Virus record (IMG/VR): IMGVR_UViG_3300037424_001538
Location: 1-45,207 of that record
DNA: 45,207 bases
Reading direction: 5' to 3' (one strand)
Source of the DNA: a virus
Lineage: Duplodnaviria > Caudoviricetes
Shown here one piece after another: positions 1,685 through 29,007 of the stretch. Position numbers and translations under genes: made by a program. The first letter of the stretch is position 1. Each line of letters opens with the position of its first letter. Below the pieces are notes generated by a model that ran no database searches, was not told the DNA's origin, and saw only the letters and a list, made by a program, of their open reading frames with translations.

Positions 1685-1685
1685 C

Positions 1686-6125: not shown

Positions 6126-8677
6126 TGCGTCGTAATCACTGGGAGCTACCAGACGTCTCAACAGGCCCCTTTAAGTTGCCTCCCAGGATTAGCATTGTGG
6201 TGCCTGTAAGCTGGGATGTCACTAACTACATCACCAATCCCTCCTTTGAGGGTCCATCGAGCAACTGGAATGTGAGCGCAGGCAGTTGCACTGTATTTTC
6301 TGGGACCAACGCCGTACAGTTCTCGGGTTCATGGAGTCTGGAGGTCGCCTGCTCTCCTCCACCTGAGTCCCCTTTACGATTGTATTACGGCGATACAACG
6401 CCTCTCAGTACTATATTGGGTTCAGTGTACGTAGCCTCAATATGGTTTCTGGGATCTCGAGCGGGCGTGTATTACGATTGGTATATAGCTACCACAGCCG
6501 GAGCGCGGTTGAGCGGGATTCAATTCCGCTCGACTGGGTACTGGCAGCGAGTATGGTTCTCCTACAAAGAAACGTCCACGGCATCACGGCGTTTGTATAT
6601 AGAGTCGGTCGACAACGTTGCAACGTTCTACATAGATGCTGCACAGTTTGAGTCAATACCTTCGGGACAGATAGCCCTTCCAACAACCTATATCGATGGC
6701 GATCAAACCAGCTTGACGACTGACAATTCTGAGGTGGTTTATTACTGGAACGGCACCCCCCATGCATCCACCAGTGTTCGTCTTAGTGGAGACAGGTCGG
6801 GAGGTAGAGAGCTTCCTTTGAGCGAGATGGGTGTGGTTGTCAATGCGATATCCGGACTAGGACTATCAACACCCAACAATATATCGCTACCCTTTAGTCA
6901 ATTAGACGGAGAGCAATACCAGAGAACTCAAAAGGAGCCTAGGGTGTTCTCTCTAGGAGGTCGAATTACAGGAAGCAGTCAAGCACAGTTAGATAGACTG
7001 TTTGGTTCCTTGACTCGAGTCGTTGATACTGATGTTGCGCCGTTTCGGCAGCCTTTGGTACTTCGATACGTGCCTGTTGACGAGGACGAGAATCAAATAG
7101 GCTCTGAGGTAAGCATCCCATGTATCTATCAGGGCGGAATGGAGGGTCAGAGGAATAATCACAACACCGAACAGTTCGTGGCTAGCTTCTCTCAGCTCTA
7201 TCCAGTACTTCTTGGCCATGAGGAAGGGGAGACGCTCAATGTATATGATGAGATAGCCGCTACGAACTTCCTTATCAAGAGATCTCCTGGGGGTTTGTGG
7301 AGTGCTCTTAGTACGGGTATCAGTGGTGGCACCACAACCATAAACGCAATAGCCGAGCACCCCAACGGCACCATCTATATTGGCGGCAACTTCACCGACG
7401 CAGGGGGTAGTGGTGCTGACTACGCAGCTATCTACAACCCGATCACTGATACTTTCTCGGTAGTCAAGGCGGCTACTGCCTTCAATGCAGAGGTGTTTGC
7501 TATCGTAATTGACCAGGCCAGCGGTCATGTATACTTTGGCGGTGCGTTCACCAACGTAGATGGAATAGCTGCGGCAGACGGCATTGTAGACTACGACGTG
7601 ATCAATAACACCTTTGCGGCGTTGGGTTCTGGCGTGAGTGCAGGTACGTCTGTGCTATCGCTAGCACTCGATGGCGCAGGTTTCCTTTTCGCAGGGGGCA
7701 CCTTCCTATTGATGAACGGCGTTGCGAACACAGTGAGGTTTGCTCGATGGAACATAAACACGGGTGTATGGCAAGCATTTGGGACCGGAGTCAACGGGGA
7801 TGTGAATACCATCCTGGCTCTCGCGAGTGGGATTGTGTATATTGGTGGCGATTTCCTCCTTGCGGGGGGCGTTGCCAGCACTATTCGTATAGCCAAGTGG
7901 AACGGCGCGGCCTGGACGGCGATGGGCACTGGCGCCAATGCGCGGGTTCGCGACCTTCTAATAGCTCCTAGCGGGATCCTCTTCATTGCAGGGTCATTTA
8001 CGACAATCAATGGCCTATCCATTCAGTATCTTGCCAAGTGGAATGGTACAGGGTTTAGTGCACTGGACTCAGGCACCTCAGTAACGAATGCCGTATACTC
8101 ACTGTCGATGGATCCGACCGGCATGTTGTATCTAGTAGGAGCGTTCCTTAACATCAATGGGGTTGTGTATGATGTAAGCGCAGCCAAGTTTGATAATGGG
8201 GCCTTTACGCCTCTCGACATGTATACATTCTCTGCCGCCACCAAGATATTGGTGAGTAGGAATGGCAGTATCTATATAGGCCTCACACTTGGCTCTGGTG
8301 CCGCCATACCAGGGAGTACTGTAGTAACGAATCATGGTTCGGCATATGCGTATCCCATCATGACTATTACATGCGCCTCACCTTCTCAGGATATTCAACA
8401 ACTCATCAATGTCACAACTAAGAAAGCCATTTATCTGGACTACACTATGCAGATAGGTGAGATCGCCGTCTTTAACTTCAACCCACAGAAAGGGTCGTTC
8501 ACCTCTAACCTCCAGGGAAACTTAGCATCGAAGGTATTACCGGGATCGAACGAGGGCAGCTTCTACTTGGTTCCTGGTGATAACACAATAAGGATTCTAG
8601 CCACAAACGCTTTCACGGTGGCTATACGCTGGAGCATGTCATTCTTATCAGCATCCGATCCCGTGGGTGTTATATGA
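6125..8677 (+). CDS. Evolved distal tail (Dit-like) protein with a carbohydrate-binding-like domain and an inserted beta-propeller
   Basis: Follows the tape measure gene. N-terminal NYITNPSFEG CBM-like start; Dit-like segments (GLGLSTPNN...EPRVFSLGG and VTNHGSAYAYP...LVPGDNTIRI) flank repeated 'IYIGGxFT...IAKWNG' blades. Confidence 0.7.
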   Translation: MRRNHWELPDVSTGPFKLPPRISIVVPVSWDVTNYITNPSFEGPSSNWNVSAGSCTVFSGTNAVQFSGSWSLEVACSPPPESPLRLYYGDTTPLSTILGSVYVASIWFLGSRAGVYYDWYIATTAGARLSGIQFRSTGYWQRVWFSYKETSTASRRLYIESVDNVATFYIDAAQFESIPSGQIALPTTYIDGDQTSLTTDNSEVVYYWNGTPHASTSVRLSGDRSGGRELPLSEMGVVVNAISGLGLSTPNNISLPFSQLDGEQYQRTQKEPRVFSLGGRITGSSQAQLDRLFGSLTRVVDTDVAPFRQPLVLRYVPVDEDENQIGSEVSIPCIYQGGMEGQRNNHNTEQFVASFSQLYPVLLGHEEGETLNVYDEIAATNFLIKRSPGGLWSALSTGISGGTTTINAIAEHPNGTIYIGGNFTDAGGSGADYAAIYNPITDTFSVVKAATAFNAEVFAIVIDQASGHVYFGGAFTNVDGIAAADGIVDYDVINNTFAALGSGVSAGTSVLSLALDGAGFLFAGGTFLLMNGVANTVRFARWNINTGVWQAFGTGVNGDVNTILALASGIVYIGGDFLLAGGVASTIRIAKWNGAAWTAMGTGANARVRDLLIAPSGILFIAGSFTTINGLSIQYLAKWNGTGFSALDSGTSVTNAVYSLSMDPTGMLYLVGAFLNINGVVYDVSAAKFDNGAFTPLDMYTFSAATKILVSRNGSIYIGLTLGSGAAIPGSTVVTNHGSAYAYPIMTITCASPSQDIQQLINVTTKKAIYLDYTMQIGEIAVFNFNPQKGSFTSNLQGNLASKVLPGSNEGSFYLVPGDNTIRILATNAFTVAIRWSMSFLSASDPVGVI

Positions 8678-9810
8678 GCATAGAGTACTCTTGCAGGCTG
8701 GAAGATCCCTATGGCGAGCCACTAGAGTCGTTCAGTAACTTCGCCGATCCCACCGACGGGGGCGGTGCGGGGCTAGACTACGTACTCAATGTAGGTCAAG
8801 AGGCAGCGTTGCTGTTAACCTTACCGTCGACCGTGGATCTTAGCTTGTTCAATGTCGATTGTCGATTAAGACCCTTCAGGTCGATCCACGGTCGAACACC
8901 CTACAACGACAATCAGTCATGCTACTTGCTACGTAAGAAGACTATTACCAATGGCTGGTATAGATTCACAGGAAGACACGTTAACTCTTTGTTTACTCGT
9001 AGGATCGTTGGATATTCCACAGGAACGGCTTTCGCGGTGAAGACAGACAACGCTGGCGACATAATCAAGCAGTTAGCCAGGCAGAACATTGGTGCGAATA
9101 TCGACGCTAGTCGCGACACAGTTTTGACTAGTGCTAACTTAGTCACACCAGGCTATCTCTCCATAGAGCCAGATTTAGGTCACGGAGTCTCAGTGACGCG
9201 AGAGACAGCACGTGGGGAGCTGCTGCGAATATTCCAGGATCTTGCCGCTGACTCGACTCAGAGCGGTACCTACTTAGCTTTCGGTCTCGCTGGAGGCTCC
9301 GGATCTAATCCGTTCGAACTTGTGACTAAGGTGGGCCAATGGGGCGAAGATCGACAAGACCTGGTTTTATCACCAGATCAAGGCAACATCGAGAACTGGA
9401 AGGTAGAGATAGACCACAACGATGAGGCGACTGTAATTATCGCGGCGGGCACTGGTCAGGGATCTCTTCGCATTAAACAGGTAGCTGTCGACACAGCTAG
9501 GGTCAGCACATCACCGTTCGGACATATAGAGAAGATGGTTGACGTACCGAATGGAGATTCAGCGGCCAAGGTACTATCCTATGCTCAGGCGTCACTAAGA
9601 CAGTATGAACCTAGGATATCTTTTGAGGCAGACCTGGTCGAGACGGCCAAGGCTACCAGGGGTGTTCATTTCGACTTGGGGGACATAGTAACAGCTAGAG
9701 TGACCGTTCAGGGTAACGTGTTACAGTTCCCTTGTCGGCTTGATACCGTTTACGTAAGCGTGCGAAAGACGGGTCAGAGAAGTCGAATACAGCTGACGAG
9801 TCCAATATGA
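8674..9810 (+). CDS. Baseplate hub / siphovirus Gp37-like minor tail protein
   Basis: Position after Dit; motifs ATVIIAAGTGQG, FGHIEKMVD, HFDLGDIVT typical of this family; ATGA overlap. Confidence 0.7.
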   Translation: MSIEYSCRLEDPYGEPLESFSNFADPTDGGGAGLDYVLNVGQEAALLLTLPSTVDLSLFNVDCRLRPFRSIHGRTPYNDNQSCYLLRKKTITNGWYRFTGRHVNSLFTRRIVGYSTGTAFAVKTDNAGDIIKQLARQNIGANIDASRDTVLTSANLVTPGYLSIEPDLGHGVSVTRETARGELLRIFQDLAADSTQSGTYLAFGLAGGSGSNPFELVTKVGQWGEDRQDLVLSPDQGNIENWKVEIDHNDEATVIIAAGTGQGSLRIKQVAVDTARVSTSPFGHIEKMVDVPNGDSAAKVLSYAQASLRQYEPRISFEADLVETAKATRGVHFDLGDIVTARVTVQGNVLQFPCRLDTVYVSVRKTGQRSRIQLTSPI

Positions 9811-10766
9811 GTGACGATCCCTTCATGGACATCATGGAAGCTCAGGCAGATCTGGAGAAGATTGTCGAGCGTACAAGACTCAAGGAAACTCCCGGTGCGT
9901 TCACTTCAGGGTCGGTACTGTTTGCCGATCCGAGTGGTAACATCGCACAGGATAATATCAACCTTTTCTGGGACGACACAAATAACACTCTGCATCTTGG
10001 CGGGACAAGCACGATCACGGGCACGCCACGGCTGGCGCTCAAAGGGACAAACGCGGACGGCGCTGCAGGACCACATTTCGCGACGTACACGGCAGCAGAC
10101 ATCTATCCGATTCTCCACTTTCTAAGCTTCACTCACGACAACATGGAGATGTCGTTTGATGCCTACTATAATCCCGGCGATGGGCAGTGGAAATCCAGTG
10201 ATGCTGGCAGTAACTTCCAGATCAGGAAAAATGGCGACCAGTGGGGTGTGTGGTACGACAGCGGGGTCGCTCAGGGCAGCACGGTGACATGGAATGAGGG
10301 GGTACGACTGGGCATTACTGGTATCTTTTCATCGCTTGGCGACATGCGGGCATACGGCGATTTTATCTCATCAAAGGCGGGGGTCGATCGCACTGGCTAC
10401 ATCTTTCATCCACTGACCACCTACTTGACCAGCACCTCGTTTGACGGGGATGCGTTTAGCGACACCGCAAAAACGCTGATCGACCTGAGCGCGGTGTTTG
10501 GGGCACCAGCAGATATCACAGCAGTGTTATTCAGTGTCGGCGTGCGAGACAGCGGATCTGCTGCCACCGACACGGCACTCATTCTGAGCGATGACAATAC
10601 GGCGGGTAGTGGTGTTTCCGTCAGCCCGATGCCGGTCAACGATCGGCTGTTCCGAGGTGAGCTAGTGGTTCCTTGTGACGCGAACGGCGACGTGTACTAC
10701 CAGATCGATGCCTCTGGTGCCAGCACGTTCGATGTGTTTCTTTCGATTATTGGATACTGGATATGA
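9807..10766 (+). CDS. Tail fibre / receptor-binding-like protein
   Basis: End of tail module; GSVLFAD...NLFWDDTNNTL fibre-type motif; beta-rich C-terminal domain ending IIGYWI. Confidence 0.6.
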   Translation: MSDDPFMDIMEAQADLEKIVERTRLKETPGAFTSGSVLFADPSGNIAQDNINLFWDDTNNTLHLGGTSTITGTPRLALKGTNADGAAGPHFATYTAADIYPILHFLSFTHDNMEMSFDAYYNPGDGQWKSSDAGSNFQIRKNGDQWGVWYDSGVAQGSTVTWNEGVRLGITGIFSSLGDMRAYGDFISSKAGVDRTGYIFHPLTTYLTSTSFDGDAFSDTAKTLIDLSAVFGAPADITAVLFSVGVRDSGSAATDTALILSDDNTAGSGVSVSPMPVNDRLFRGELVVPCDANGDVYYQIDASGASTFDVFLSIIGYWI

Positions 10767-11035
10767 TAACGGCTCTCGATGTTCAAGCGTTGATCGAACT
10801 GCTTCAACGCACACCCATGTCTAAGGCCGAAAGACTATTCGCCGGTCGCTTCATAAACGATCTAGTGAGCACTGTAAAGGAGACCCCAGATGAAGGTGAA
10901 ACGAACCTTGGCCGGTCTGGCAGTAGTGGTGGGTCTTTTGGCATGGACCACCGCACTGGCAGTCCAAGTGCCGAGAGCGATGTTCCCGCTCGCGACAAAT
11001 CCACTCCAGGTGTCGACACTCACAACAGTACTTAA
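10763..11035 (+). CDS. Hypothetical protein
   Basis: ATGA coupling to the fibre gene; the 3' half overlaps the next ORF. Confidence 0.4.
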   Translation: MITALDVQALIELLQRTPMSKAERLFAGRFINDLVSTVKETPDEGETNLGRSGSSGGSFGMDHRTGSPSAESDVPARDKSTPGVDTHNST

Positions 11036-11369
11036 GTGTGCCTGTGGCTTCGCTAACTCGGTCATGGGTCCCGACAACAATCTATACACGATCGCTCAGA
11101 GGTTCGATAGAGGTGGTCGACTCTTCGTGTATAGGTTTGACGGCACTGTGTTGGTAGAGGTAGTTGATCCAGAAATGGTAGGGCCCATGCCTAATAGCAA
11201 TGAGCCAACATTTGGGTTGCCGGTGCAGAAGAATGGTCCTGGCAGCATACTCTTCACGCCAGGACCAAACCCCATAATGGTTATCATTGCACCAGCTCGG
11301 CCAGTGGGGGTGGTAGAAGGGGACTATAACCTGATAATGTATCGCGTGGCTCTATCTGAACTTGAGTGA
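10890..11369 (+). CDS. Hypothetical secreted/membrane-anchored protein
   Basis: RBS AAGGAG; signal-peptide-like N-terminus (MKVKRTLAGLAVVVGLLAW...ALA). Confidence 0.6.
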   Translation: MKVKRTLAGLAVVVGLLAWTTALAVQVPRAMFPLATNPLQVSTLTTVLKCACGFANSVMGPDNNLYTIAQRFDRGGRLFVYRFDGTVLVEVVDPEMVGPMPNSNEPTFGLPVQKNGPGSILFTPGPNPIMVIIAPARPVGVVEGDYNLIMYRVALSELE

Positions 11370-11946
11370 CCGGCATATACACTCTGAAGCAGGGATGGCC
11401 CAGGACCTCCCTGCTTCGGCATCCTAGATTATTGTTGTAGTAGGCTACAGAGGGATCACACATAATGTCTACCTGCACACACGCTAGGTCGTCTAGATAG
11501 GAATCAGGCAGGTCGAAAAGCACGTGCCCCAGCTCGTGTGCTATAGTCGCTTGCTGATTAGATCTCGACATAACAACCCACGCTGCACTCGAGTCATACA
11601 TGGCCAAGCCTTCATGCTCCTCGTACATCCTTCTGTGTGTCGTCAGGTTGTTCACCATAAACACCGTAATGGCATCCTGTGTGATCCACTCACCACCTTC
11701 GCCTATGGGGTTGAGATAGTAGCTGGAGGTGCTAGTGATAGATATGGTGTGTCGAACGAAAGCCGTGACAGGTTCCGGCGACAGTCTTCCCCACCACCCA
11801 ACAGCCTTGGCTACATCTTCTCTAGCTTGAGACACTATCTCGGGAGTTATAACTTCTCCCTCTGGTGAAACCACCACGACATCTACCGGCATTTGCCTTG
11901 GCTCCAGAATCGTTACCAGTAACAGGATTGCAATAAGTAGGCGCAT
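11284..11946 (-). CDS. Secreted zinc metallopeptidase (metzincin/M6-like)
   Basis: Signal peptide; TIAHELGHVLFDLPDSY (HExxH...LPD.Y) and a Met-turn-like DIMC. Confidence 0.75.
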   Translation of the reverse strand: MRLLIAILLLVTILEPRQMPVDVVVVSPEGEVITPEIVSQAREDVAKAVGWWGRLSPEPVTAFVRHTISITSTSSYYLNPIGEGGEWITQDAITVFMVNNLTTHRRMYEEHEGLAMYDSSAAWVVMSRSNQQATIAHELGHVLFDLPDSYLDDLACVQVDIMCDPSVAYYNNNLGCRSREVLGHPCFRVYMPVTQVQIEPRDTLSGYSPLLPPPLAELVQ

Positions 11947-11947
11947 G

Positions 11948-12472
11948 TTAGTCAGGTCTCCAATGATCAGCTATGACGTGTACCCATGAAGCTGACGCTG
12001 AGCCGAGCAAAATAGCTGCAACAAGCAAAAGGCTATCTATGCCATTATGAATCAAAGCACTCCAAATGTGCATAAGTAGCTTTTTTAGTGTCGCCTCAAG
12101 GAAAATGTTATCAATGACTTGCGCGAATCCATTAAGCGCCAGCCAGAAAACAGCAACGAGTCCTAGTAAATACATCGAGCGAATAATGCCACCAAGTGCA
12201 GAATGACTGAATTTTGAGCGATGCCTAACAAGATGTTTGTAGGGAGACCATAGCGCTTTTAGCACCCCCCAACGGTTGTACACTCGGGAGTTAAGATCCA
12301 TGTCTGGTGACATAAAGAATGTACTGAATAGGTGCGACGCGGCGAAGGCTGTGCCTAACGCCAGTGCGTAGTGAGTGTCGTCATGAATGTTATAACCGAT
12401 AACATAAGCGCCCCAAGCAAATGGCGCGCTGGTGATTGCACCAATGACATCATGTGTTTTGTGGCCGGGCAT
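11948..12472 (-). CDS. DUF2227-like membrane metal-binding protein
   Basis: MPGHKTHD, SPDMDL, RWG...W.PY...HRS..SH and terminal HVIAD motifs; several hydrophobic helices. Confidence 0.75.
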   Translation of the reverse strand: MPGHKTHDVIGAITSAPFAWGAYVIGYNIHDDTHYALALGTAFAASHLFSTFFMSPDMDLNSRVYNRWGVLKALWSPYKHLVRHRSKFSHSALGGIIRSMYLLGLVAVFWLALNGFAQVIDNIFLEATLKKLLMHIWSALIHNGIDSLLLVAAILLGSASASWVHVIADHWRPD

Positions 12473-12475
12473 ATG

Positions 12476-12715
12476 CTACCTCTTTTTCTTCCTCTTGTAT
12501 GTCCCCCTCCAACCAATTGGTCGACCTGAGATTAGGGGTCTTGCGGCTAGCATTATAGGTATCATGTCGGTGTAGTTGCTTGTAGACATCTCAAGGGCGG
12601 CTCTGATTAAAGAGGAGACCGTTACGTTATACTTCAATGCGGTCTCCTCCAGAGCAACGGCTTGCTCCTTCGTGAGCAGTACGCTAGTTTGTTTGCCGTT
12701 CATTTCGTGCGGCAT
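12476..12715 (-). CDS. Ribbon-helix-helix (CopG-like) DNA-binding protein
   Basis: KQTSVLL strand followed by two helices (VSSLIRAALE); basic tail. Confidence 0.6.
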   Translation of the reverse strand: MPHEMNGKQTSVLLTKEQAVALEETALKYNVTVSSLIRAALEMSTSNYTDMIPIMLAARPLISGRPIGWRGTYKRKKKR

Positions 12716-12893
12716 TTAACCTCTGATCAATAGTCGATATGGGCTCAAGCGTGTCGATGTATTTGAGCGAGCCAGCATTCTGCCGCAGGTGTATTCTTGT
12801 GACGCCATACCACTCCTCCAGGTATGCCACATTGTCTACTGGGATGGAGACTGCGTTGTCCGGCTCGCGTTTCCTAACCAGTATTGTTGCCAT
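12684..12893 (-). CDS. Hypothetical protein
   Basis: Tightly packed ORF with RBS GAGGA. Confidence 0.5.
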   Translation of the reverse strand: MATILVRKREPDNAVSIPVDNVAYLEEWYGVTRIHLRQNAGSLKYIDTLEPISTIDQRLNAARNERQTN

Positions 12894-12894
12894 C

Positions 12895-13143
12895 CTATTC
12901 CTCAGGTATGATCAGCGTCTGCTTATCGTCGATCGGAATCTCCTGCCCCTTCGCACGGGGCCTCCAGGGCCTGACTGGTTGCGCTGTTCGAATGTGACCT
13001 GACCATCGAGACCCTTCAGCCGGCTCGCTTGTCAACGGCACAATGGGTATGCCCATGTGCTTGATCACCTCGCTTTTAATCCACCGCCTAAACTCATTCA
13101 TGTCCTCGAGACTGGGCGGTGGCGATGCTAGCTTTATTTTCAT
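12895..13143 (-). CDS. Hypothetical protein
   Basis: ATGA-coupled within the operon. Confidence 0.45.
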   Translation of the reverse strand: MKIKLASPPPSLEDMNEFRRWIKSEVIKHMGIPIVPLTSEPAEGSRWSGHIRTAQPVRPWRPRAKGQEIPIDDKQTLIIPEE

Positions 13144-13367
13144 GGTCGATCACCCCACTCTATCAGCAGTTTGTACTGGCAGTCATACACGGCTGTCCTG
13201 TCATCTTCTCCGCCACGAGACTTAATACACAACTCCAGGGCTCTATCGTATCTAGCCCGGTCGTTCTTCAGGCTCCTGTTGTAACTAACAATGAATGTGA
13301 ATGTGAGGAGCCCCACCACGACCAGGACGAAGAGTAGGCTGGCTAAGCCCTCTGCTCTGGTTCTCAT
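13140..13367 (-). CDS. Small single-TM protein with two Cys (paralog of the upstream gene)
   Basis: ATG at 13367 is ATGA-coupled; TM helix then YDRALELC...C...WGDRP. Confidence 0.6.
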   Translation of the reverse strand: MRTRAEGLASLLFVLVVVGLLTFTFIVSYNRSLKNDRARYDRALELCIKSRGGEDDRTAVYDCQYKLLIEWGDRP

Positions 13368-13570
13368 GGTCGTCCTCCATACCTCAACGAAAGGTTGATC
13401 ATACAGATGGCAGGGTTGGTGGACTGGGCGCAAAGTTCTGCTGTGTAGTCGTATAGTATCCTAGTCCTTTTACGCTCATGCTCTACCGCCATCCTTAATA
13501 GACCAAGAAGGACAACCAACAACAGGATGGTTACCAGCCAGGCATCGAAACCAAGGCGAGCGTGTTTCAT
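13364..13570 (-). CDS. Small single-TM protein with two Cys
   Basis: ATG at 13570 is coupled to the FtsK-like gene stop; TM helix then YDYTAELC...C...YGGRP. Confidence 0.6.
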   Translation of the reverse strand: MKHARLGFDAWLVTILLLVVLLGLLRMAVEHERKRTRILYDYTAELCAQSTNPAICMINLSLRYGGRP

Positions 13571-14937
13571 GCGTCGTCCAGCACTTCCGCTAAAGAGATG
13601 TTGGAGTACATCACAATGCCTTTGCTCGATCTTATCTTGGTTAGGCCTAGGTCCTTTGCAGCAATCCCAAACGCCGTGTTGTTGATTGGTGTGTACTGCA
13701 TTGAAGCACACCATTCTCTGTATGCTGCATATAGAGCCGCCCCCGTTAACGAACGGCCAGGTGAATCGACAACCACTGTATCGACGAATTCGCTTGGGCT
13801 ACCAGAACCGCCTTCGGCAGCCCGTGCGGAGGTAACGGAGCCAAGCAGGGTATCGAGCAGTTGTGTGTGCTCCTCGCGCCGTGCTGGCATCCTAACAACA
13901 TAGGCATCGAACTCTTCATCGCTCACGAATGGAGCCTGTACGATTGTCTGCTCGTCGCCCAAGCGAACCACAAATGTGCCGTGACGCCTGCGTGGGTCCG
14001 GTAGAAACGACGGCGGGAAGACAATCGAGTCAGTAGGAAGTCCTAGCGCTACCGCGTTCTGAGAGCGGTCCTGGAGAGGACCTGACATTACGGTTGACAG
14101 GTTGATACGCCATCGCATGTCTCGCTTGGTGGGTGTCGACATGGACACCACCACTTTGAAACCTAGCGCACGGCCTTTCGACGCCAGTGAGATGAGCCGC
14201 TGCTCGATCAGTCCCTGGATAGCATCCATACCATCAGTGATTAGAACAACGATCATGGGTAGCACGTTACCGGTCTTAGTGACGTATTGCTCACGCGACC
14301 GATAGCCACTGCCGAAGATCAGGTCGCTACGGCGCTCTGCCTCTGCGTCGATCAAGTCTAGCCCTTGCTCGATGCGCTCGGTGCCCTTCTCACCGTATCC
14401 TCCACAAGGATCAATGACCATGTGTGCTCGGCTCTTTAGGTTGGGCGTCAGCCAGTGACCCTTCCCGTCAAGCACGATGAACTGCAGGTCTTCAGGCGTG
14501 TTGCGTGAGGTCAATGCCATGAACCATCCCATCGTGACGGTATCCTTGCCTGACCCTGATCCTCCATACACAGCGACGTTTAAGGTGTCGTCACCAAAGT
14601 CCAAAGACCGTATCGCCCCTTGAAAGTCGATGCCAAGGGGCACAGCTAGCTTGCTGGGGCTAATCCTTGGCAGGATGTTGGCTAATAGTACCATAGAGGG
14701 TAGCTCAGCGACGGCCTTTCGCACGCGGATGGCGGGATCGCCGGTCACCGCGACCGGCTGTGGGGTAGGTCTAGGCTGCGGCTGCTGTGGCTGCTGTGGC
14801 TGCTCGTCGGGGAGGTCAGGTCGAAAGCCCAGTAAGAAAAGAGCTTCTTCCCGGTTAGGAAGGCGGTGCTTAATGAACCTCCTGTATACACCCCAGCACG
14901 AGGCGGCGATAACGAATATTGTCAGTGGGTCAGTCAT
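13567..14937 (-). CDS. FtsK/SpoIIIE-like ATPase with N-terminal TM anchor and C-terminal winged helix
   Basis: RBS GGAGG; TM helix, Pro/Gln linker, VPLGID, GGSGSGKD (Walker A variant), TPEDLQFIVLDGK, EAERR, KGRALG; D5-type wHTH at the C-terminus. Confidence 0.8.
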   Translation of the reverse strand: MTDPLTIFVIAASCWGVYRRFIKHRLPNREEALFLLGFRPDLPDEQPQQPQQPQPRPTPQPVAVTGDPAIRVRKAVAELPSMVLLANILPRISPSKLAVPLGIDFQGAIRSLDFGDDTLNVAVYGGSGSGKDTVTMGWFMALTSRNTPEDLQFIVLDGKGHWLTPNLKSRAHMVIDPCGGYGEKGTERIEQGLDLIDAEAERRSDLIFGSGYRSREQYVTKTGNVLPMIVVLITDGMDAIQGLIEQRLISLASKGRALGFKVVVSMSTPTKRDMRWRINLSTVMSGPLQDRSQNAVALGLPTDSIVFPPSFLPDPRRRHGTFVVRLGDEQTIVQAPFVSDEEFDAYVVRMPARREEHTQLLDTLLGSVTSARAAEGGSGSPSEFVDTVVVDSPGRSLTGAALYAAYREWCASMQYTPINNTAFGIAAKDLGLTKIRSSKGIVMYSNISLAEVLDDA

Positions 14938-14941
14938 CCGA

Positions 14942-15556
14942 CTACTCCTCCATGAACCATAGCCATTCGACTCCGCCGGCAATCAGCAGAGACACGATTA
15001 TTGCGAAGCCAACCTTGACGATGTCAGGAGGCTCAGATGCCATCTGTAGTGCCTCTACTGAGCTGGTCCACGACGGCGTCTTGTCGATATTCTTGGCGAG
15101 GGGCCACACACCGCCAAAGTTGAAGAACGTGTCGAAGCCCACGAAGCTGAAGCCCACGAAGCTGTATTTGGTGCCGCGCCACAGTGGTCGCTGGCCGATG
15201 GTGAAAATTAGCTGCAAGCCGAACGCCCCACCGGTAGCGTAGATGCCCTCATTCACCCCAAGCCCGATTAGTGCCTGAGTCGTGGTATATACGCCTACAA
15301 GCCACACAGTCATGGCCGCGATACGGGGTCCCGTGAACAGGTGAGGTATGGAAACAGGTCCTCGTACAACAGCCTGTCGTTGAGCCCGAGGGGTCTGGTT
15401 GCGTGGCTTGTTGGTTCGTCTTTGGCGCCACCGAGCCAATCTCTTTGCGGCTTCCTGGGTAGCAGCAGCCACGTTCGCGACTGCTGACGGCTCGTTGCGT
15501 TCTTGGCTGGGCTCGACCTCTACTAGTGTAACCTGCTCAGTTGTTGATTCGCTCAT
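14942..15556 (-). CDS. Multi-pass membrane protein
   Basis: RBS AGGAGG; charged N-terminal region followed by about 4 hydrophobic segments. Confidence 0.7.
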   Translation of the reverse strand: MSESTTEQVTLVEVEPSQERNEPSAVANVAAATQEAAKRLARWRQRRTNKPRNQTPRAQRQAVVRGPVSIPHLFTGPRIAAMTVWLVGVYTTTQALIGLGVNEGIYATGGAFGLQLIFTIGQRPLWRGTKYSFVGFSFVGFDTFFNFGGVWPLAKNIDKTPSWTSSVEALQMASEPPDIVKVGFAIIVSLLIAGGVEWLWFMEE

Positions 15557-15565
15557 ATGTGCCTC

Positions 15566-16459
15566 CTAATGGCTGTTGTAGTAAGTGGCGAAATCCACAC
15601 AAGTGCCGTTCTGAGCGCATGCACCTGTGTTCCCTGATTCAGCGAGCTGGACGTGTGTGTGATTTAGGTGATTGGTTCTCCCTATTGGAGTACCTGCAGA
15701 CAACACCTGTCCCACTTGGAAGTCCGGTCGATCCTTCATGTGCCCCGCGTAAAAGACGAAACCGTCGGGAAATGTTCCCTGGATCCACTGACCTTCTGTA
15801 GGACCCGATTCATAGTATCCGACGGCAATCACCTGTAAGTCGAAGGGTGTGCCTACCACACAATTCTCAGGACATATAAAGTCGGTTCCCCAATGTTTGC
15901 ATCCTGCCTGGAAACCCCACGAAGCGCAGTCGACACTGTTGAACGATGCTCCTATTTCCATTGAGTCGGTGACACGAGACTTTCGTGGTTGCGCTGTAAT
16001 GGACTCGTTGTAGATCTGGGCAACTAGTGGTGCATGGGTCCCCCAAGGCGATGCCGCAAGTCCGTTGAACGCTAAGTTGGGGTCGTTGCTCTGGATACCC
16101 CGCACAATCTCGCTATAGCCTGGATGATTACCTTTGAGTGTGAGTAAAGTTGCATTGAAACCGTCTTCCGCCGACAAATAGTTCTTTACACAAGGGGTTT
16201 GATTAAAGCACGTCGCACCAGGCATTTCTTGGGTGGTAGCAAGGGGGTTAAAGACGGCTTCCGATCCCTCTGCCTGCTGCCACGAATTGATGAACAAAAG
16301 TGTTTCGGTTGATGGGTTGCTATTTCCTAGCCGCAAAGCCAGTTGGTAGCTCCAGTCTGTTTTGTTGTCTAGCACTGGCCTTGATGATTCTGGCGTGGAG
16401 CCTATCTGGTATAGTTTCACCAGAATCATCAAGGCGGTTGCCCACAAGTACTTCTTCAT
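15566..16459 (-). CDS. Signal-anchored peptidoglycan hydrolase: lysozyme-like domain plus M23 peptidase-like domain
   Basis: N-terminal hydrophobic anchor; WQQAEG...FNPLATT...VKNY...ASPWG lysozyme-like region; M23 motifs HWGTD (HxxxD), YAGHM and HTH (HxH). Confidence 0.75.
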   Translation of the reverse strand: MKKYLWATALMILVKLYQIGSTPESSRPVLDNKTDWSYQLALRLGNSNPSTETLLFINSWQQAEGSEAVFNPLATTQEMPGATCFNQTPCVKNYLSAEDGFNATLLTLKGNHPGYSEIVRGIQSNDPNLAFNGLAASPWGTHAPLVAQIYNESITAQPRKSRVTDSMEIGASFNSVDCASWGFQAGCKHWGTDFICPENCVVGTPFDLQVIAVGYYESGPTEGQWIQGTFPDGFVFYAGHMKDRPDFQVGQVLSAGTPIGRTNHLNHTHVQLAESGNTGACAQNGTCVDFATYYNSH

Positions 16460-16470
16460 GCCCTGACCCC

Positions 16471-17061
16471 TTAGTGCTTCGGCGTGCCTATCGCTTCTCC
16501 CTTGACCAAACCGTGAAGCAACATTCGAGCCAGATCCTCTTGTGCTGTGGGGTTATCGACCATAAACGGATCGGCCGAGCAGGCCTGCACTCCGGATGCA
16601 GGGATCTGAACGCACCACCATCCATCTCCTGGCTCTCCCAGATTAGCGAACACGTACTCGGACGAGGCGATGGGAGACGGTTGCGGCCATGTTGGATATG
16701 GCGTAGCGGTGGGGATCTTGGCACTGTCCGGGAGGCCCCTAACAACGATCTTATCCTTCTTGGGCACCGCGACGTTGCCCCCTGCGACCCCTTGCGTTGG
16801 GGCTGTAGCTGCAGCCGTCGGTGTCGCTTGGGGCAGTGGCGCTCCATTGGATGTGAACACGATGCCACTGCCAGTAACCGGCAGAGCGTTTAGTGCTGGC
16901 TGAGCAGCAAGCCTGTTCGCGCCTGCCATGATTGTGCCTGCGACGCTGGGCGCGTTACCCGCCAGTTTCACAATCGTCTGGCACCCACCAGCCAAGATGA
17001 GCCATGCCGCAACGACGAAGAACAGGAACCCTCTCAACTCACGTGCAAGTGCTGATACCAT
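16471..17061 (-). CDS. Membrane-anchored Pro/Thr/Ala-rich protein
   Basis: TM/lipobox-like LILAGGC; PQATPTAAATAPT linker; small Cys-containing C-terminal domain. Confidence 0.6.
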   Translation of the reverse strand: MVSALARELRGFLFFVVAAWLILAGGCQTIVKLAGNAPSVAGTIMAGANRLAAQPALNALPVTGSGIVFTSNGAPLPQATPTAAATAPTQGVAGGNVAVPKKDKIVVRGLPDSAKIPTATPYPTWPQPSPIASSEYVFANLGEPGDGWWCVQIPASGVQACSADPFMVDNPTAQEDLARMLLHGLVKGEAIGTPKH

Positions 17062-17278
17062 CGAATTCCCCCTTAGATCTGATGTATGGGTGAGGTCGGA
17101 GCTCGTCTTTTAGAGCTTTTACATCACCCTCTCGGAATAACCACCGCGCCCCCGATTTGTAGGAGGCTAGCTTGCCCGACTTGGCCCAATTGTAGACCGT
17201 ACCTACTGAGACGTCGAGGATCTCCGCCGCTCTTATGACGCCTATGTAGCCAGTGTCAACTTTGGCTGTTTCTTCCAT
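17039..17278 (-). CDS. Excisionase-family (HTH_17) DNA-binding protein
   Basis: RAAEILDVSVGTVYNWAKSGKLASYKSGARWLFRE. Confidence 0.85.
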   Translation of the reverse strand: MEETAKVDTGYIGVIRAAEILDVSVGTVYNWAKSGKLASYKSGARWLFREGDVKALKDELRPHPYIRSKGEFDGISTCT

Positions 17279-17283
17279 GCTTC

Positions 17284-17312
17284 ATTATACTCCTAATTTG
17301 CAAGAAAAGCAA
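17284..17312 (-). promoter_or_regulatory. sigma70 promoter TTGCTT-N17-TATAAT, leaderless
   Basis: Exact 17-nt spacer; ATG of the HTH gene lies 5 nt after the -10 box. Confidence 0.8.
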
Positions 17313-17325
17313 GCTCCAAAAAGTG

Positions 17326-17814
17326 TTAACCATCACCTTCTCGCAGCTGGTCAGCCTTCTTCCTATCTGCTTGAACGATAGCCTGCCAAACCGGTCTCTG
17401 ATCGTCAGGCAAGTACTTCTTTGCCTCCTCCATGTATAACCCCTCACAACGACTGCACACAGGATGACCGCAGGCTGTGGTGAAGGCACGATCGTCGCAC
17501 AAGACACAGGCTGGCGGCGACCATATCACAATGTTGTCCACCTCTGGCTCGGCCACTTCAACCTTGAAGTAAGGCGACTCGTGCCTGGCTTCGGGGACGG
17601 ACTCAAACCCTGTAGGTCCCAGAATGAGGTGACCGAAGAGTGTGTCACCAAAGTAGAGGTGGACGTGAATGGGCTCCTTGGGCAGTTCGAAGTCTTCGGG
17701 TAGCTCTACATCTACCTGAGGACTATTGTATCTTTTGTCCCAGCCCCTAATAGGACATGTGGCTATCAGCTCACCTAGGCCTTCCTCAGACGCTCTGCGT
17801 ACTTTGATCTCCAT
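17326..17814 (-). CDS. Hypothetical protein with C-terminal Cys cluster
   Basis: RBS AAGGAG; CVLC...CGHPVCSRC. Confidence 0.55.
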   Translation of the reverse strand: MEIKVRRASEEGLGELIATCPIRGWDKRYNSPQVDVELPEDFELPKEPIHVHLYFGDTLFGHLILGPTGFESVPEARHESPYFKVEVAEPEVDNIVIWSPPACVLCDDRAFTTACGHPVCSRCEGLYMEEAKKYLPDDQRPVWQAIVQADRKKADQLREGDG

Positions 17815-18028
17815 AACGTTGTATCTCCTTGACTATGTCGACCATATCGTACAGTTGGTGATAAACAATCCAACCGAAACGCTCAGCGTGCTTGGGTGTG
17901 AATGGAATGAAGAAGTTGTATGCTTCGGGCTCGCTCATCCAGTTCTTCAGATAGATTATGATCCTACTGTCATAGCTGATCCGGCCATAACCGTCGCGCC
18001 ACACAAGAGGCCTTGATAATGGATCCAT
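17786..18028 (-). CDS. Hypothetical protein
   Basis: RBS AGGAG directly after the polymerase stop. Confidence 0.5.
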   Translation of the reverse strand: MDPLSRPLVWRDGYGRISYDSRIIIYLKNWMSEPEAYNFFIPFTPKHAERFGWIVYHQLYDMVDIVKEIQRYGDQSTQSV

Positions 18029-18036
18029 GGTCGCTC

Positions 18037-20775
18037 CTAGTACTTCATCAGGTCATCGGGTGGCTTCGACCAGCGTGTTACTACTTTGGTGTCAGCCTTC
18101 CATGCGACACGAGGTAACCAATATGACGCTGTGCTCTCCATGACCTGAGGCAGTATCACCTCCAGCCGTGGTGCTAGGAATCGTGGACACCTGATGAGGA
18201 TCGAGTCATGCACTAGCAGTACAACCTCTAACCCCCTGCGTGCAAGTATGTTCGCCGATAGGAGACAAGTGTCGCTCGCTGTCCCCGCAACGGTAGCATG
18301 CACAGCCGCCTTCCTTACATCGTCAAGAAGTGTCCTGTTTTCGGGATAGTGCCGTGTCTCAGGTGTAAGAGCGTATAGCTCTGGGAAGGACCTTCGTCTG
18401 CCGTGTACTGTAACGACGTACCCGTACCTCAGTGCGTTGGCATACTGTTCTTTCTTCCACTGCACCAATCGAGACATGTTTGCTTCGTACTTTCGCACGA
18501 ACGCTTTGGCCTGCGCTACAGGAATGCCTGTGTCTTGCGCAAAGGAGTTCTCATTGCCACCGTAGAGGTATGAGAAGTTGAACATTTTCACCTGAACACG
18601 AAGCTCATCCCATGTGTACTTGGCCTCCTCAAGAGATATGCCCCTTTGCCTTGCTATGTCCTCAGGAGTGCCGAACATTGCCAGAGTAGCTTCTGTGTGC
18701 AGGTCTCGATCGTCGCGATACACTCTAATAAGGAACGGGTCTTCGCTGTAGTGGGCTGCTGCTCGAAGCTCGGCCTGTGAATAGTCGGCGATGACTAGAA
18801 CTGCCTCGATGTCCTCATCGGTCAGGCTAGCCGGGTTGGGTATCAGCGATGCATGCAGCTTCTCACCAGTAAGAGGATCTCGTGCCAGCCAATCCCAATC
18901 GACGTTGCATATGCTGAGATCATCTGACAGGTAACATGCAAGCTCGTCCTGTGTGTATGGCGATGCAATGAAGGCACCACGGATCGCTTGCCCGTATCTG
19001 TCGCTGGGTCGAGGGATGGTTTGCAGCGCGGGATCTCGCACGGCGAGGCGCCCAACCTCAGTTCCCATGACACGCTGGTCAGCATGCACCCTTCCATTGA
19101 CATCACAGTACTCGAGCATGTTATCGATGTAACCCGACTTGATCTTCTGCACGCGTCGGTGTGCCTTAAGCCGTGCGACAAAGGGATCATTGGTAACGGC
19201 TAACAAAGCAGTCAGAATACCACTAGCGGTTGAGTTGTTAGGGTTCTTCGACTTGCCCTTGTGGACCCGTTTGCCGATCATCTTGGATAGTTGGCTGGGC
19301 CGAGGTAGCTTACGATCGACGTAGAGGATGTCTGCTACCTGACCAGATGCATTGGGGTTGAAGTCCGGCTTGCCACAAAACTCCCTGAGCTGACGGGTGT
19401 GCTCTGCTATTTCCTGCTCCATAACCTTCTGAACGTTCTCGAGGTATGGCACGTCGACGCCAATACCCCTGAACTCCACCCCACTCAAGAAGTCCTGAGC
19501 AGGCATGAGCAGGTTCATGAATGGCCAGTCGTAAGCGGTAGCATCTCGGGTTTCGGCATGTGTCGCAATCGTTTTGTAGGCATCGCTAAAGGCTGGTCGA
19601 GCCTTGAGGCGTTTCTCGAACCTACCCTTGAGAGCCAGAGTGACTGTACCATCCCACGCCGCATATAGCGCTAACTTTTCATAGGGAATTTTTGAATACC
19701 AGTCGTTACTATTCCGGAGGTATTGTTTAATTATCTCGGCTTCGTAATCAGCGATACCATACTCATCCTGGGCCAATCGCTTTAGCCCGTGAGGATCGTT
19801 CTCAGCCAGCACATAGTGGGCTAGCATGGTGTCGAAATCAACTCTGCCGTGTACTCCTAAGGTTTTTAAGAACACCACGTCGAATTTACCATTGTGGGCA
19901 ATAGTTTTCGACTTGTGGAAGAACTCGTCTAAGATACCTGGTGCGCGTGAGTGGTATAGCACGTCGGCACTAACAATGTAACTCCTCTTGAGTATCCACG
20001 TCAGCACCATCATCAAGATGCCGTCACCCTTCTCATCAGGACGATCGAACCACTGCACTTGATTGGTCTCGAGGTCGAATGCAGCCCACGCATCCTTAGG
20101 TGCTCTACCTACCAAGGCGTCGAGATCCTGAATATTGTTGATATACACAACCTCAGGAGCCTGCAGCAGTATACCAGCATCCTTGGCAAACACCCGTGCG
20201 ATACCCTTTTTGAACCCTGACATCTCAGTCGGCTTGCGAGATACATATGCTGGGTGATACTCAGTCATGATCCGCTTGCCGGCCAACACACTACTGTCCG
20301 GTGCATCGAACCAGCGCGCGCGCCGTGCGGAGGGACTGAGCGCAGCCGCTTCGCGTAAGCCGGCGACGGCACCTAGCACAACCTCAGCAGCGTACTTGCC
20401 TAATGCGACGACTCTCTTGCCCTCGAACTCCTTGAGCTCGGCCTTGAGACGAGGGTAGCACGCTTCAACCGCATCTTGATAGTTCTCTAGTACATTGTCA
20501 GGTGGGCGACACGATACCACATTAGTCTTGGAGACCAGTTCGATAGCCCCACCACCAGACCTAACCGCTCGCTCAAGCAGCTGACCTGACACGCCTACGA
20601 ACGGCTCGCCCTTCTGTACTTCCTCTCGACCAGGCGCCTCACCTACAAACACAACGTCAGTCCCCTCCACCCATTTGGAGGGGACATATTCGCCGAGGTC
20701 GAGGAGTGGGCAATCTTCGCATCGGGCGCAGGGATGTTTGCGCACGGCAAGTTCGTGCTGGTTAGGCGATATCAC
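18037..20775 (-). CDS. polA: Family A DNA polymerase with N-terminal family-4 uracil-DNA-glycosylase-like domain and 3'-5' exonuclease
   Basis: CARCEDCPL, VGEAPG, TNVVSCRPP, YHPAY (UDG4); FDLET, HNGKFD, YAAWD (Exo I-III); ADYSQAELR, KMFNFSYLYG, VHDS (Pol A/B/C). GTG start at 20775 with GGAGG. Confidence 0.95.
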   Translation of the reverse strand: MISPNQHELAVRKHPCARCEDCPLLDLGEYVPSKWVEGTDVVFVGEAPGREEVQKGEPFVGVSGQLLERAVRSGGGAIELVSKTNVVSCRPPDNVLENYQDAVEACYPRLKAELKEFEGKRVVALGKYAAEVVLGAVAGLREAAALSPSARRARWFDAPDSSVLAGKRIMTEYHPAYVSRKPTEMSGFKKGIARVFAKDAGILLQAPEVVYINNIQDLDALVGRAPKDAWAAFDLETNQVQWFDRPDEKGDGILMMVLTWILKRSYIVSADVLYHSRAPGILDEFFHKSKTIAHNGKFDVVFLKTLGVHGRVDFDTMLAHYVLAENDPHGLKRLAQDEYGIADYEAEIIKQYLRNSNDWYSKIPYEKLALYAAWDGTVTLALKGRFEKRLKARPAFSDAYKTIATHAETRDATAYDWPFMNLLMPAQDFLSGVEFRGIGVDVPYLENVQKVMEQEIAEHTRQLREFCGKPDFNPNASGQVADILYVDRKLPRPSQLSKMIGKRVHKGKSKNPNNSTASGILTALLAVTNDPFVARLKAHRRVQKIKSGYIDNMLEYCDVNGRVHADQRVMGTEVGRLAVRDPALQTIPRPSDRYGQAIRGAFIASPYTQDELACYLSDDLSICNVDWDWLARDPLTGEKLHASLIPNPASLTDEDIEAVLVIADYSQAELRAAAHYSEDPFLIRVYRDDRDLHTEATLAMFGTPEDIARQRGISLEEAKYTWDELRVQVKMFNFSYLYGGNENSFAQDTGIPVAQAKAFVRKYEANMSRLVQWKKEQYANALRYGYVVTVHGRRRSFPELYALTPETRHYPENRTLLDDVRKAAVHATVAGTASDTCLLSANILARRGLEVVLLVHDSILIRCPRFLAPRLEVILPQVMESTASYWLPRVAWKADTKVVTRWSKPPDDLMKY

Positions 20776-20968
20776 AGAGTGCCTCCTCCAACTTCTCCCA
20801 CAACTCACTGGCGCACACCTCACATATTACAAAGGTGTGTATTAGAGCCGCGCCCCGAGGGGCTATCTCAATCTTGAAGGTGTTGAGGTAGGCGCCGCCA
20901 CCGGACTCGAGCTCCTCTCTGGTGTGTGCCAAGCATGTCCGGTCCGGTGCTAGTTTCACGGCAACCAT
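20762..20968 (-). CDS. Hypothetical protein
   Basis: ATG at 20968 with GAGGG; fills the gap between the TGT-like gene and polA. Confidence 0.45.
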   Translation of the reverse strand: MVAVKLAPDRTCLAHTREELESGGGAYLNTFKIEIAPRGAALIHTFVICEVCASELWEKLEEALCDIA

Positions 20969-21732
20969 GTTATGTCCCTCGAGCACCAGGCATCGATCGT
21001 GTTCGTGTTGACCATGGTAAGATGGATTACAGACATGTCGCGCTCGGTGATCTGCATCTCCCAATCCAGAGACGCTCTCGCTCCTCCACGGATGACCCTT
21101 AGCCCCTTGTGAGCAGCAGCAGCAGCCAAACCACTGTCAATGCCTCTCACCCCTGAGTATGTGTCTTTCGCCACTTTGATCTCTCTAAACGCGTCTCCCC
21201 AGATCCCCAATAGATGAATATGGTGGGTATGCTGAAAGGCGCGTCTTATCAGAGCTGTGAGTGCGTAGGACCTGCCACCAGGCAACCTCTCTAGGTGCTT
21301 AGGTAGTCCGATGGCAGCGTACTTCCCACGTAGATAATGGTCGATTGTCCTCAGACAGTACTCCCACTCATCCCAGCTGTCTCCCTGTGGCACGATCATT
21401 CGCCGGCGTGGCGGTACCCAGTCAAGGTAACGCTGTGTGCAGGTGGCTTTTATAGTGGCGTCAGCATTCCTGAGAACGTCGGGTAGTATGATCTCGTCGG
21501 CGCCCACTTCGTTAGCCGCCTCTACAATGAGCTCAAATGAGACTGTGTCTTCCTCAGCAGCCCCGTTGTCTACGATCAGGAATCCTCCACGCTGCAGGCT
21601 CTGCTTGACCACTTCCCTGTATATAGGGTGTCGTACAAGCTCCTGACCAAGAGCGAAGTGGTACCCACGGCCGCCTCCATACCACTCCATTAAAGAAGTT
21701 AGCTGAGGTGGTGCTATGATTGCGTACTTCAC
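20956..21732 (-). CDS. TGT/DpdA-like TIM-barrel base-exchange enzyme (divergent)
   Basis: Motif order IVDNG, LPDV, IVPQG, AIGLP, HLLG, GIDSG parallels TGT-fold motifs; located in the que cluster; GTG at 21732 is coupled to the upstream stop. Confidence 0.6.
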   Translation of the reverse strand: MKYAIIAPPQLTSLMEWYGGGRGYHFALGQELVRHPIYREVVKQSLQRGGFLIVDNGAAEEDTVSFELIVEAANEVGADEIILPDVLRNADATIKATCTQRYLDWVPPRRRMIVPQGDSWDEWEYCLRTIDHYLRGKYAAIGLPKHLERLPGGRSYALTALIRRAFQHTHHIHLLGIWGDAFREIKVAKDTYSGVRGIDSGLAAAAAHKGLRVIRGGARASLDWEMQITERDMSVIHLTMVNTNTIDAWCSRDITWLP

Positions 21733-22025
21733 TGCACTGGCTCCTTCTCTAGAACGCGAAGGTGTGACGACATAACCCAACCTTCCACGCCCGTTGAGTC
21801 CTTGACGTTCCGCCACTGGTTACTAAGTCGATCGGTACGAGCCAAGCTTAAGTCGATGACGACACTCCCCATCGAAAGTGTCTTGATCGTGATGCCTAGG
21901 GGCTCCTCCATGAGGTACGTCTCCTCTTCAACCACGACGAGCTGGCGGCCTAAATTCTGATACCCTCCTCCACAACTACTTAACAGTAGCAGGAGGATCA
22001 AGACGATTATGAGTAGCTTCATCAC
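21729..22025 (-). CDS. Small lipoprotein with SH3b-like domain
   Basis: Lipobox LLLSSC; WRNVKDSTGVEGWVMSSHL. Confidence 0.65.
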   Translation of the reverse strand: MMKLLIIVLILLLLLSSCGGGYQNLGRQLVVVEEETYLMEEPLGITIKTLSMGSVVIDLSLARTDRLSNQWRNVKDSTGVEGWVMSSHLRVLEKEPVQ

Positions 22026-23679: not shown

Positions 23680-23683
23680 TGCA

Positions 23684-24475: not shown

Positions 24476-24483
24476 ACTGCTCC

Positions 24484-25230: not shown

Positions 25231-25231
25231 G

Positions 25232-25450
25232 CTACTTGTCCTTTATCAGCTCTTCGATCTTCTTGCGTATTGCTTGGTTCATCGTCACCCTGGCGTTGTG
25301 CTCGTACAACGCAACAAACGCCTTATACTTGGCAAACCCCATTGCAAGGTTTCTAGCTACGACGTACGACACGAAAGACAGGACGATGCCTGCAATGGTC
25401 AGCTGGGCTAGAAGAATCCAAAAGATAGACCACGGTAGTGGGTACAGCAT
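25232..25450 (-). CDS. Small membrane protein
   Basis: Long hydrophobic N-terminus; coupled to neighbouring genes. Confidence 0.55.
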   Translation of the reverse strand: MLYPLPWSIFWILLAQLTIAGIVLSFVSYVVARNLAMGFAKYKAFVALYEHNARVTMNQAIRKKIEELIKDK

Positions 25451-25866: not shown

Positions 25867-25877
25867 GATCTTGTCTC

Positions 25878-26564: not shown

Positions 26565-26597
26565 GGTACACTCCTTTGGCTAGCTTCATATGCTTAT

Positions 26598-26626
26598 ATT
26601 ATAACCCGAATTCGCAGAAAAAGCAA
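26598..26626 (-). promoter_or_regulatory. sigma70 promoter TTGCTT-N17-TATAAT for the que/polA operon
   Basis: Exact spacing; intergenic, upstream of queC. Confidence 0.8.
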
Positions 26627-26669
26627 GCTCCTCATTGCCTTCATAGGCACAACAAAGGCAATGGTAATT

Positions 26670-28874: not shown

Positions 28875-28929
28875 AAGCCCTCCGATCGACAGGACGAATC
28901 TGAAGCGTTCGAAATGATCTCCCTGAACG

Positions 28930-28980: not shown

Positions 28981-29007
28981 CTAGCGGAGAATCAGGCTGT
29001 GGTTGTG

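Follow-up and report, generated by a model that had tools for sequence, protein, structure and literature searches.

A phage gene pair of an FtsK-fold ATPase with a swapped Walker site and a membrane partner: a possible septal DNA pump in Chloroflexales

Streptomyces plasmids spread by means of TraB and Spd proteins (PMC4447253; PMC3429521). Homologues of SpdB2 in actinophages might spread phage DNA in the mycelium, a statement cited to the phiC31 and VWB genome papers (PMC4447253); the idea that phages use such spreading proteins is thus already in print for these homologues. FtsK-like genes have been noted in actinobacteriophages (PMC10117723), and a Chloroflexus phage viral operational taxonomic unit, vO23, was reported with an 'accessory FtsK/SpoIIIE', which was discussed by analogy to Firmicutes phages (PMC8597652). 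Chloroflexales form multicellular filaments with shared septa, and two of three species showed septal channels, which lack cyanobacterial homologues (PMC7332563). Here we describe a related-looking gene module in the virus record IMGVR_UViG_3300037424_001538. The analyzed stretch of 45,207 nucleotides (nt), called the window below, makes up 57% of one contig of 78,908 bases and is the part analyzed here. A second sample contained the same sequence with zero differences.

A first-pass annotation, made from the sequence alone, described this module as a self-contained operon resembling a TraB-Spd DNA-transfer module inside a phage. We tentatively favour, at somewhat less than even confidence, the reading that it is a septal pump for double-stranded DNA (dsDNA), which spreads phage DNA along a Chloroflexales filament in a way analogous to TraB/Spd intramycelial spreading in Streptomyces. 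The evidence consists of folds, motifs, gene order, promoter class and distribution, from which we infer every functional step. The conserved core of the module is not seven genes but two, a membrane partner and an ATPase (the pair, below), with a cell-wall hydrolase as an optional third.

The ATPase and its membrane partner

The model of the ATPase had a predicted local distance difference test (pLDDT) score of 89. Its best Foldseek match in the PDB was the FtsK motor (6t8g, E = 5e-16), followed by EccC and TcpA, so the structure search proposed by the first-pass annotation agreed with its FtsK-like assignment. The identity to FtsK-type structural matches is about 20%, and the protein passed Pfam PF01580 with 35 bits against a cut-off of 24. 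The fold and the C-terminal winged helix of the annotation were both recovered, but the N-terminal transmembrane (TM) anchor failed the hydropathy scan in the window protein and passed it in the ortholog of phage contig L020.

Searching 1.84 billion representatives with a profile brought up a separate group of ATPase relatives that have a single domain. An alignment of 91 rows was built from P0001-P0009, P0071-P0139 (380-800 amino acids, aa) and 19 hand-picked single-domain matches, leaving out fragments and multi-domain matches. The Walker A Lys (K131) is present in 91/91 rows, and the residue after it (K+1) is D or E in 91/91. The position of the Walker B Asp is occupied by T or S in 87/91 rows and never by D, and the residue following it is D or E in 91/91. 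R256, which we take from FtsK to be the arginine finger, is kept in 84/91. The canonical GK[S/T] and hhhhDE motifs are replaced in the window ATPase by GKD and hhhhTD, whereas host FtsKs of the same class have GKS/IIDE. The earlier caveat about non-canonical Walker motifs was therefore real. As K+1 is always D or E and the Walker B Asp is T or S in most of the relatives, the motifs are better read as a conserved reciprocal swap than as decay, and judging from the alignment the swapped site is conserved and probably works.

The Ser/Thr that follows the Lys in P-loop NTPases forms a bond with the Asp of Walker B (bioRxiv 2022.06.23.497301). The accessible part of that preprint lists exceptions with Asn or Gly at K+1 and, in MglA, with Thr at Walker B; a reciprocal swap is not among them. 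A literature search found no precedent for GKD. In our tree, the ATPase family formed a clade apart from host FtsK (99/99). L022 and P0003 were cropped at the wrong motif, L142 was dropped, and long branches meet in this tree; only the starred clades were used. The C-terminal winged helix matched that of the phage's own primase-helicase (E = 5e-7 and 8e-7 in two comparisons) and was found in only one of 65 more distant family members. Because it is so rare in distant relatives, the clade of the window ATPase seems to have gained a new tip for DNA binding.

A membrane partner is encoded upstream of 56 of the 62 distinct ATPases that have at least 1 kb of upstream sequence, many of which are close kin, and upstream of 30/36 ATPases not used in profile building. 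The '~4-TM' protein of the first-pass annotation is indeed a membrane protein, but its four TM segments were not recovered: by hydropathy, 1-2 segments were called for the window protein and 3 for its ortholog in L020. Comparison with the partner encoded on Herpetosiphon plasmids gave an hhalign probability of 66% (E = 5e-5, 108 columns), with a hidden Markov model score at the level of the best shuffle; the two are probably distantly related, though weakly linked. No kinship was detected between partner types A and B or between type A and the window type, and no Pfam family matched the membrane partner. A TM, coiled-coil and helix-turn-helix (HTH) protein of a related prophage had zero matches among plasmid records. 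Chloroflexota-leaning clusters at about 0.90 were found in the ESM Atlas and are taken as leads only.

The pair is carried by a family of 17 phage contigs (L003-L019), 16 of which have terminase matches, and by phage contigs L020, L022, L031 and L032. It is also found on the Herpetosiphon plasmids pHAU01 and pHAU02, both typed non-mobilizable, and in an integrase-bearing element at tRNA-Phe (L030). No virion genes are in view on these plasmids or in L030, and the pair has no obvious lysis role there. The layout of L030 is integrase-regulator-ATPase-primase, as in an actinomycete integrative and conjugative element (AICE). A recurrent operon of actin-like ATPase, small regulator, partner and swapped ATPase was also seen (L002:3042-6998, L067:5048-9026, L074:7166-11131), apparently an undescribed partition-plus-pump unit.

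The order hydrolase-partner-ATPase recurs in five other loci (L020, L022, L134, L135, L136), so the synteny that the first-pass annotation proposed to test did recur, although the conserved core is two genes and not seven. These five loci span three hydrolase domain sets and two ATPase clades. The L022 hydrolase is glucosaminidase plus M23, that of L136 has the same lysozyme domain plus NlpC/P60, and that of L134 is a true ortholog of the window hydrolase. The ATPases of L134, L135 and L136 belong to the other clade and have canonical motifs. Since the slots of the module are refilled by non-orthologous parts, its gene content suggests that the arrangement itself is under selection. In relatives, the module is also flanked by members of a third family of multi-TM proteins (L003:11338-11889, L136:673-1431, L022:6762-7409); this family occurs in 17/17 L003-type loci and is not found in the window.

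L134 belongs, with L147 and L151, to a prophage of about 35 kb in genome G293 (C1, about 5,459,090-5,493,936), which lies at tRNA-Ala and carries the full module with a canonical ATPase. We considered whether this element is an integrative and conjugative element (ICE) and rejected this, as genes for terminase, portal, scaffold and capsid are present, together with a 47-bp att repeat. Plasmid matches of the L134 ATPase were limited to 4 records, all from filamentous cyanobacteria. An ATPase related to this canonical clade is present on small filamentous-cyanobacterial plasmids (L152:2957-4129, Nostoc pCC7120zeta), and no multi-TM partner was seen with it.

The recurrence in filamentous taxa that the first-pass annotation asked about was observed: the ATPase family is present in 45/167 genomes of Chloroflexales, the order to which the Oscillochloris genome G001 belongs. 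In a sample of the phylum it was found in 12/401 genomes, all 12 among those 45. With 4-9 candidates scored per genome, a blank stands for no find among those searched. When all GTDB contigs were scanned by pattern, 4 loci came up, 2 of them from Oscillochloris. We infer from this range that the phage host is a member of Chloroflexales. Matches in Gemmatales metagenome-assembled genomes (L028, L029) lie on phage-like contigs of 5 kb, which were probably binned wrongly.

Hydrolase, operon and phage setting

The coordinates of the module and its downstream genes are given in Table 1. The seven module open reading frames (ORFs) all lie on the minus strand, with intergenic gaps of -23 to +11 nt.

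Table 1. Promoter and genes of the module and of the genes that follow it
Feature	Coordinates	Strand	Remarks
sigma70-type promoter TTGCTT-N17-TATAAT (putative function)	17284..17312	-	5 nt ahead of the HTH start
Excisionase-like HTH_17 protein, 79 aa	17039..17278	-	Pfam PF12728, E = 1e-12; PHROG 66
Membrane-anchored linker protein, 196 aa	16471..17061	-	no family
Cell-wall hydrolase, 297 aa	15566..16459	-	N-terminal anchor, lysozyme-like domain (E64), M23 peptidase (H189, D193, H267, H269)
Membrane partner, 204 aa	14942..15556	-	charged N-terminus, then several hydrophobic helices
FtsK-fold ATPase, 456 aa	13567..14937	-	N-terminal helix, GK-D132 / hhhh-T234-D235, R256, D5-primase-type C-terminal winged helix
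Single-TM protein, 68 aa	13364..13570	-	paralog of the 75-aa gene (E = 4e-5 between them); L020 ortholog
Single-TM protein, 75 aa	13140..13367	-	hydropathy scan
Five further coupled genes: 82, 69, 79, 174 (DUF2227) and 220 aa	11284..13143	-	gaps -32 to +3 nt

The anchored lysozyme-like plus M23 hydrolase was correctly recognized in the first pass. Its model matched phi29 gp13, which has the same two domains (PDB 3csq, 315 columns), and LytM/lysostaphin. E64, H189-x3-D193 and H267-x-H269 show no or almost no variation across 19 homologs. Among 29 IMG/VR loci with hydrolase homologs, the partner gene was found only at L102 (the G293 prophage). At the remaining 27 loci with an ORF match, the domain mostly lies in long ORFs (at least 500 aa in 21/27) and no partner was found, so the lysozyme-like domain alone is no marker of the module. 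The ATPase profile misses the canonical clade, hence we make no statement on ATPase presence at these 29 loci. A perfect 16-bp inverted repeat is present in the 5' end of the hydrolase gene (16378-16393 and 16420-16435). We considered it as an inversion switch and rejected this, because the contigs of two runs are uninverted and homologs share the present reading.

The promoter predicted ahead of the excisionase-like HTH gene was found at exactly 17312, and a transcript from it is likely to be leaderless at that gene. Six related sites were found (41763, 41153, 33357, 29667, 26626 and 17312), all on the minus strand and all at gene boundaries; 100 shuffles yielded 1.23 such sites on average and 4 at most. 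This pattern was defined post hoc from the site at 17312, which a generic promoter scan did not list. The spacer of 5/6 sites contains TGC(A/G)AAT, possibly a site for a phage regulator. Because two further sites of the set precede the gene blocks downstream of the helicase and flanking the primase, the module most likely belongs to the early/middle expression class. The HTH_17 protein is likely to be a regulator or DNA adaptor. The linker protein has, as annotated, a single N-terminal hydrophobic segment and a linker rich in P, A, T and Q, followed by a small C-terminal domain. An anchored linker protein of like layout stands in front of the module in L134 and L136, with no detectable homology to the 196-aa protein. 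The two small TM proteins of the annotation were each recovered with a single TM segment.

The operon did not prove to be self-contained at 13140, since five more genes follow without a gap. A general scan of the window listed no minus-strand terminator after this position, and 4/5 of the downstream genes keep their order in L020. These genes are likely to share the transcript of the module, whether or not they belong to the putative machine.

The window is part of a tailed phage: its plus strand encodes a tape measure protein, Dit and minor tail proteins. The minus strand carries genes for DNA polymerase, D5 primase, helicase and the 7-deazaguanine pathway, and no head genes are in view in the window. 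The 7-deazaguanine pathway genes at 20956-26564 (FolE, QueE, QueD, QueC and a glutamine amidotransferase) adjoin a UDG-fused DNA polymerase A and are likely to serve DNA modification. A tRNA-Met(CAT) and a second tRNA, called Tyr with an unusual ATA anticodon, lie at 38598-38837. Nucleotidyltransferase and SIS-domain (GmhA-like) genes are found at 41926-43214; the DNA of the latter gene is about 70% identical to many Chloroflexales genomes, in a comparison without control taxa.

The proposed pump and its alternatives

In the favoured reading, a septal DNA pump, the genes would be expressed early, from the promoter class of the replication genes. The anchored hydrolase would open septal peptidoglycan locally, and the membrane partner and the ATPase anchor would form a channel, as SpdB2 and TraB do in Streptomyces. 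A hexamer of the ATPase would bind DNA through the winged helix and translocate dsDNA. The D132/T234 pair may keep the hydrogen bond of Walker A with Walker B in reversed order, so that the site would stay functional. Phage DNA could then pass from an infected cell to its filament neighbours without a virion.

Several observations weigh against such a pump. The sensor Q kept by 84/91 relatives is replaced by S in the clade of the window ATPase (6 rows), and the position of the catalytic Glu is Asp; the ATPase activity may therefore be low. Two ATPase members carry G at K+1, and one copy on a chromosome appears degenerate. No hydrolase gene accompanies the pair in L003-L019, L031 and L032 or in most cellular loci. 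On many cellular contigs (23 loci, some redundant), an actin-like ATPase gene precedes the pair, and a small regulator gene often separates the two. A relaxase is also encoded on the contigs L064 and L144, in L064 together with a coupling protein. A chromosomal pair lies between housekeeping genes (L063:8779-11206, G103), with like copies in L041, L043, L044 and several genomes, which suggests a host role too; the protein is a candidate domesticated septal protein. A cluster of clt-like 8-mer repeats was not found in the window, apart from a coding 45-bp tandem repeat. The host prediction from spacers of clustered regularly interspaced short palindromic repeats (CRISPR), suggested in the first pass, did not succeed: positions 1-20000 and 25208-45207 gave no spacer match in 167 genomes, a weak blank as 2 candidates per genome were scored. 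This search returned a low-complexity repeat, tRNA, conserved metabolic genes and a few short matches. Finally, it may be descent, and not the filamentous habit, that limits the family to one order.

The lysis question, raised in the first pass as what would overturn its reading, was answered in part. The related prophage of G343, one of the five other loci with the hydrolase-partner-ATPase order, encodes an amidase as its own endolysin, about 25 kb away from the module. In the G293 prophage, no separate endolysin was seen near the holin-like genes in the stretch read, where an insertion sequence lies, so the module hydrolase could be the endolysin there.

Among the alternatives, the one that survives best, itself unlikely, is a segregation aid. 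It would be a SpoIIIE-style pump that acts only at the closing division septum, so that both daughters inherit the element and mature septa are not crossed. The position of the pair behind an actin-like ATPase gene, or near ParA (L137, L144), fits it equally well, and FtsK in Bacillus phages has been read in this way (PMC8597652). However, an open septum would need no dedicated anchored wall hydrolase, and the module is kept by integrated prophages or ICEs (L030, L134, L135, L145) that segregate with the chromosome.

We consider primary TraB-style conjugation between filaments, to an unrelated recipient cell, to be quite improbable. TraB alone transfers Streptomyces plasmids (PMC4447253), pHAU01 and pHAU02 are without a typed relaxase, and L030 has the layout of an AICE. 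Nevertheless, the relaxases beside the pair noted above suggest a separate mating system, no clt was found in the window, and a phage that forms virions can already reach other filaments. About as improbable, or slightly more so, is a module that transports no DNA, in which the ATPase, as a slow switch or a scaffold, exports protein in an EccC-like manner, plugs septal channels or excludes superinfection. The non-canonical Walker motifs, the loss of the sensor Q and the EccC domains among the structural matches would agree with this. However, the ATPase has one domain and not the triple tandem arrangement of EccC/EssC, and the Pfam scan of window ORFs gave no WXG100 family match. The match of its winged helix to that of the phage's own primase-helicase also argues that the ATPase acts on DNA.

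The poorest candidate is a lysis or wall-remodelling cassette with the hydrolase as a secreted or signal-anchor endolysin, holin-like membrane proteins and an incidental ATPase: an anchored lysozyme-like plus M23 protein is a plausible endolysin and no other was found in the window, but the promoter is of the replication class and not one for late expression with structural genes, no window ORF had a holin PHROG match, the holin is away from the pair in 15/17 L003-type loci, a glucosaminidase lies about 7 kb from the pair in L032, and the pair is on plasmids too, so a lysis role is unlikely for the pair, while the hydrolase may still serve lysis.

A broader version of the septal pump reading is doubtful as a whole. 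It holds that several unrelated Chloroflexales tailed-phage lineages independently acquired a septal pump, shared with plasmids and integrated elements, whose P-loop has its Mg-binding Ser/Thr and Asp exchanged, and spread virion-free through a filament by it, and that a copy domesticated on the chromosome may form part of the septal channel. Virion-free spread of phage DNA in a multicellular bacterium was conjectured for actinophages (PMC4447253), and we found no demonstration of it in the open literature. Nor did the open literature hold a description of this ATPase family, of the swap or of the Chloroflexales range, although subscription papers and supplements could hold prior notice. The module makes such spread testable in cultured hosts, with pHAU01, pHAU02 and, if the strain is available, the G293 prophage. 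If the pump is real, this would be a second phylum with relaxase-free dsDNA transfer. The module also offers candidate septal proteins for Chloroflexales, and its ATPase family is a natural test of the proposed catalytic pair of Ser/Thr (K+1) and Walker B Asp (bioRxiv 2022.06.23.497301), which it reverses.

Comparison with known systems

The module shares with TraB and Spd of Streptomyces (pSVH1, pIJ101, AICEs) one FtsK-like ATPase, which is anchored in the membrane and has its winged helix at the C-terminus, a coupled multi-TM partner, the lack of a relaxase, a filamentous host (here a predicted one) and occurrence on plasmids and integrated elements. The likeness noted in the first pass thus holds for layout; it does not extend to membership. 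Among 12 matching records of 72,556 plasmids (E = 1e-5), none was from Streptomyces. The swapped Walker pair, the D5-type winged helix, an HTH_17 protein in place of a GntR TraR, its own wall hydrolase, the predicted Chloroflexales host and the virion-forming phage carriers also separate it from TraB/Spd; no clt repeats were seen in the window, and its partner matched no Pfam family. By its sequences the module is not a TraB family member, as it fails on TraB kinship, Walker motifs and regulator.

The FtsK/SpoIIIE motor and TcpA, the coupling protein of pCW3, are the best structural matches of the ATPase, in line with its PF01580 score. Its motifs and its separate clade set it apart from FtsK/SpoIIIE. 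Unlike TcpA, it is accompanied by no type IV secretion system or relaxase among the 50 window ORFs scanned, which bears out the earlier statement that no relaxase or VirB4 is visible. The hydrolase has the two-domain layout of the phi29 tail enzyme gp13, but it has an N-terminal anchor and belongs to a replication-side operon rather than to the tail genes. vO23 is likewise a Chloroflexi phage with an FtsK-family gene; partner genes, motifs and spread along filaments are not mentioned in the accessible part of that paper (PMC8597652). For the SpdB2 homologues of actinophages, the accessible text names the membrane protein alone and its role is conjectured, whereas the phage described here encodes the ATPase, the partner and the hydrolase together.

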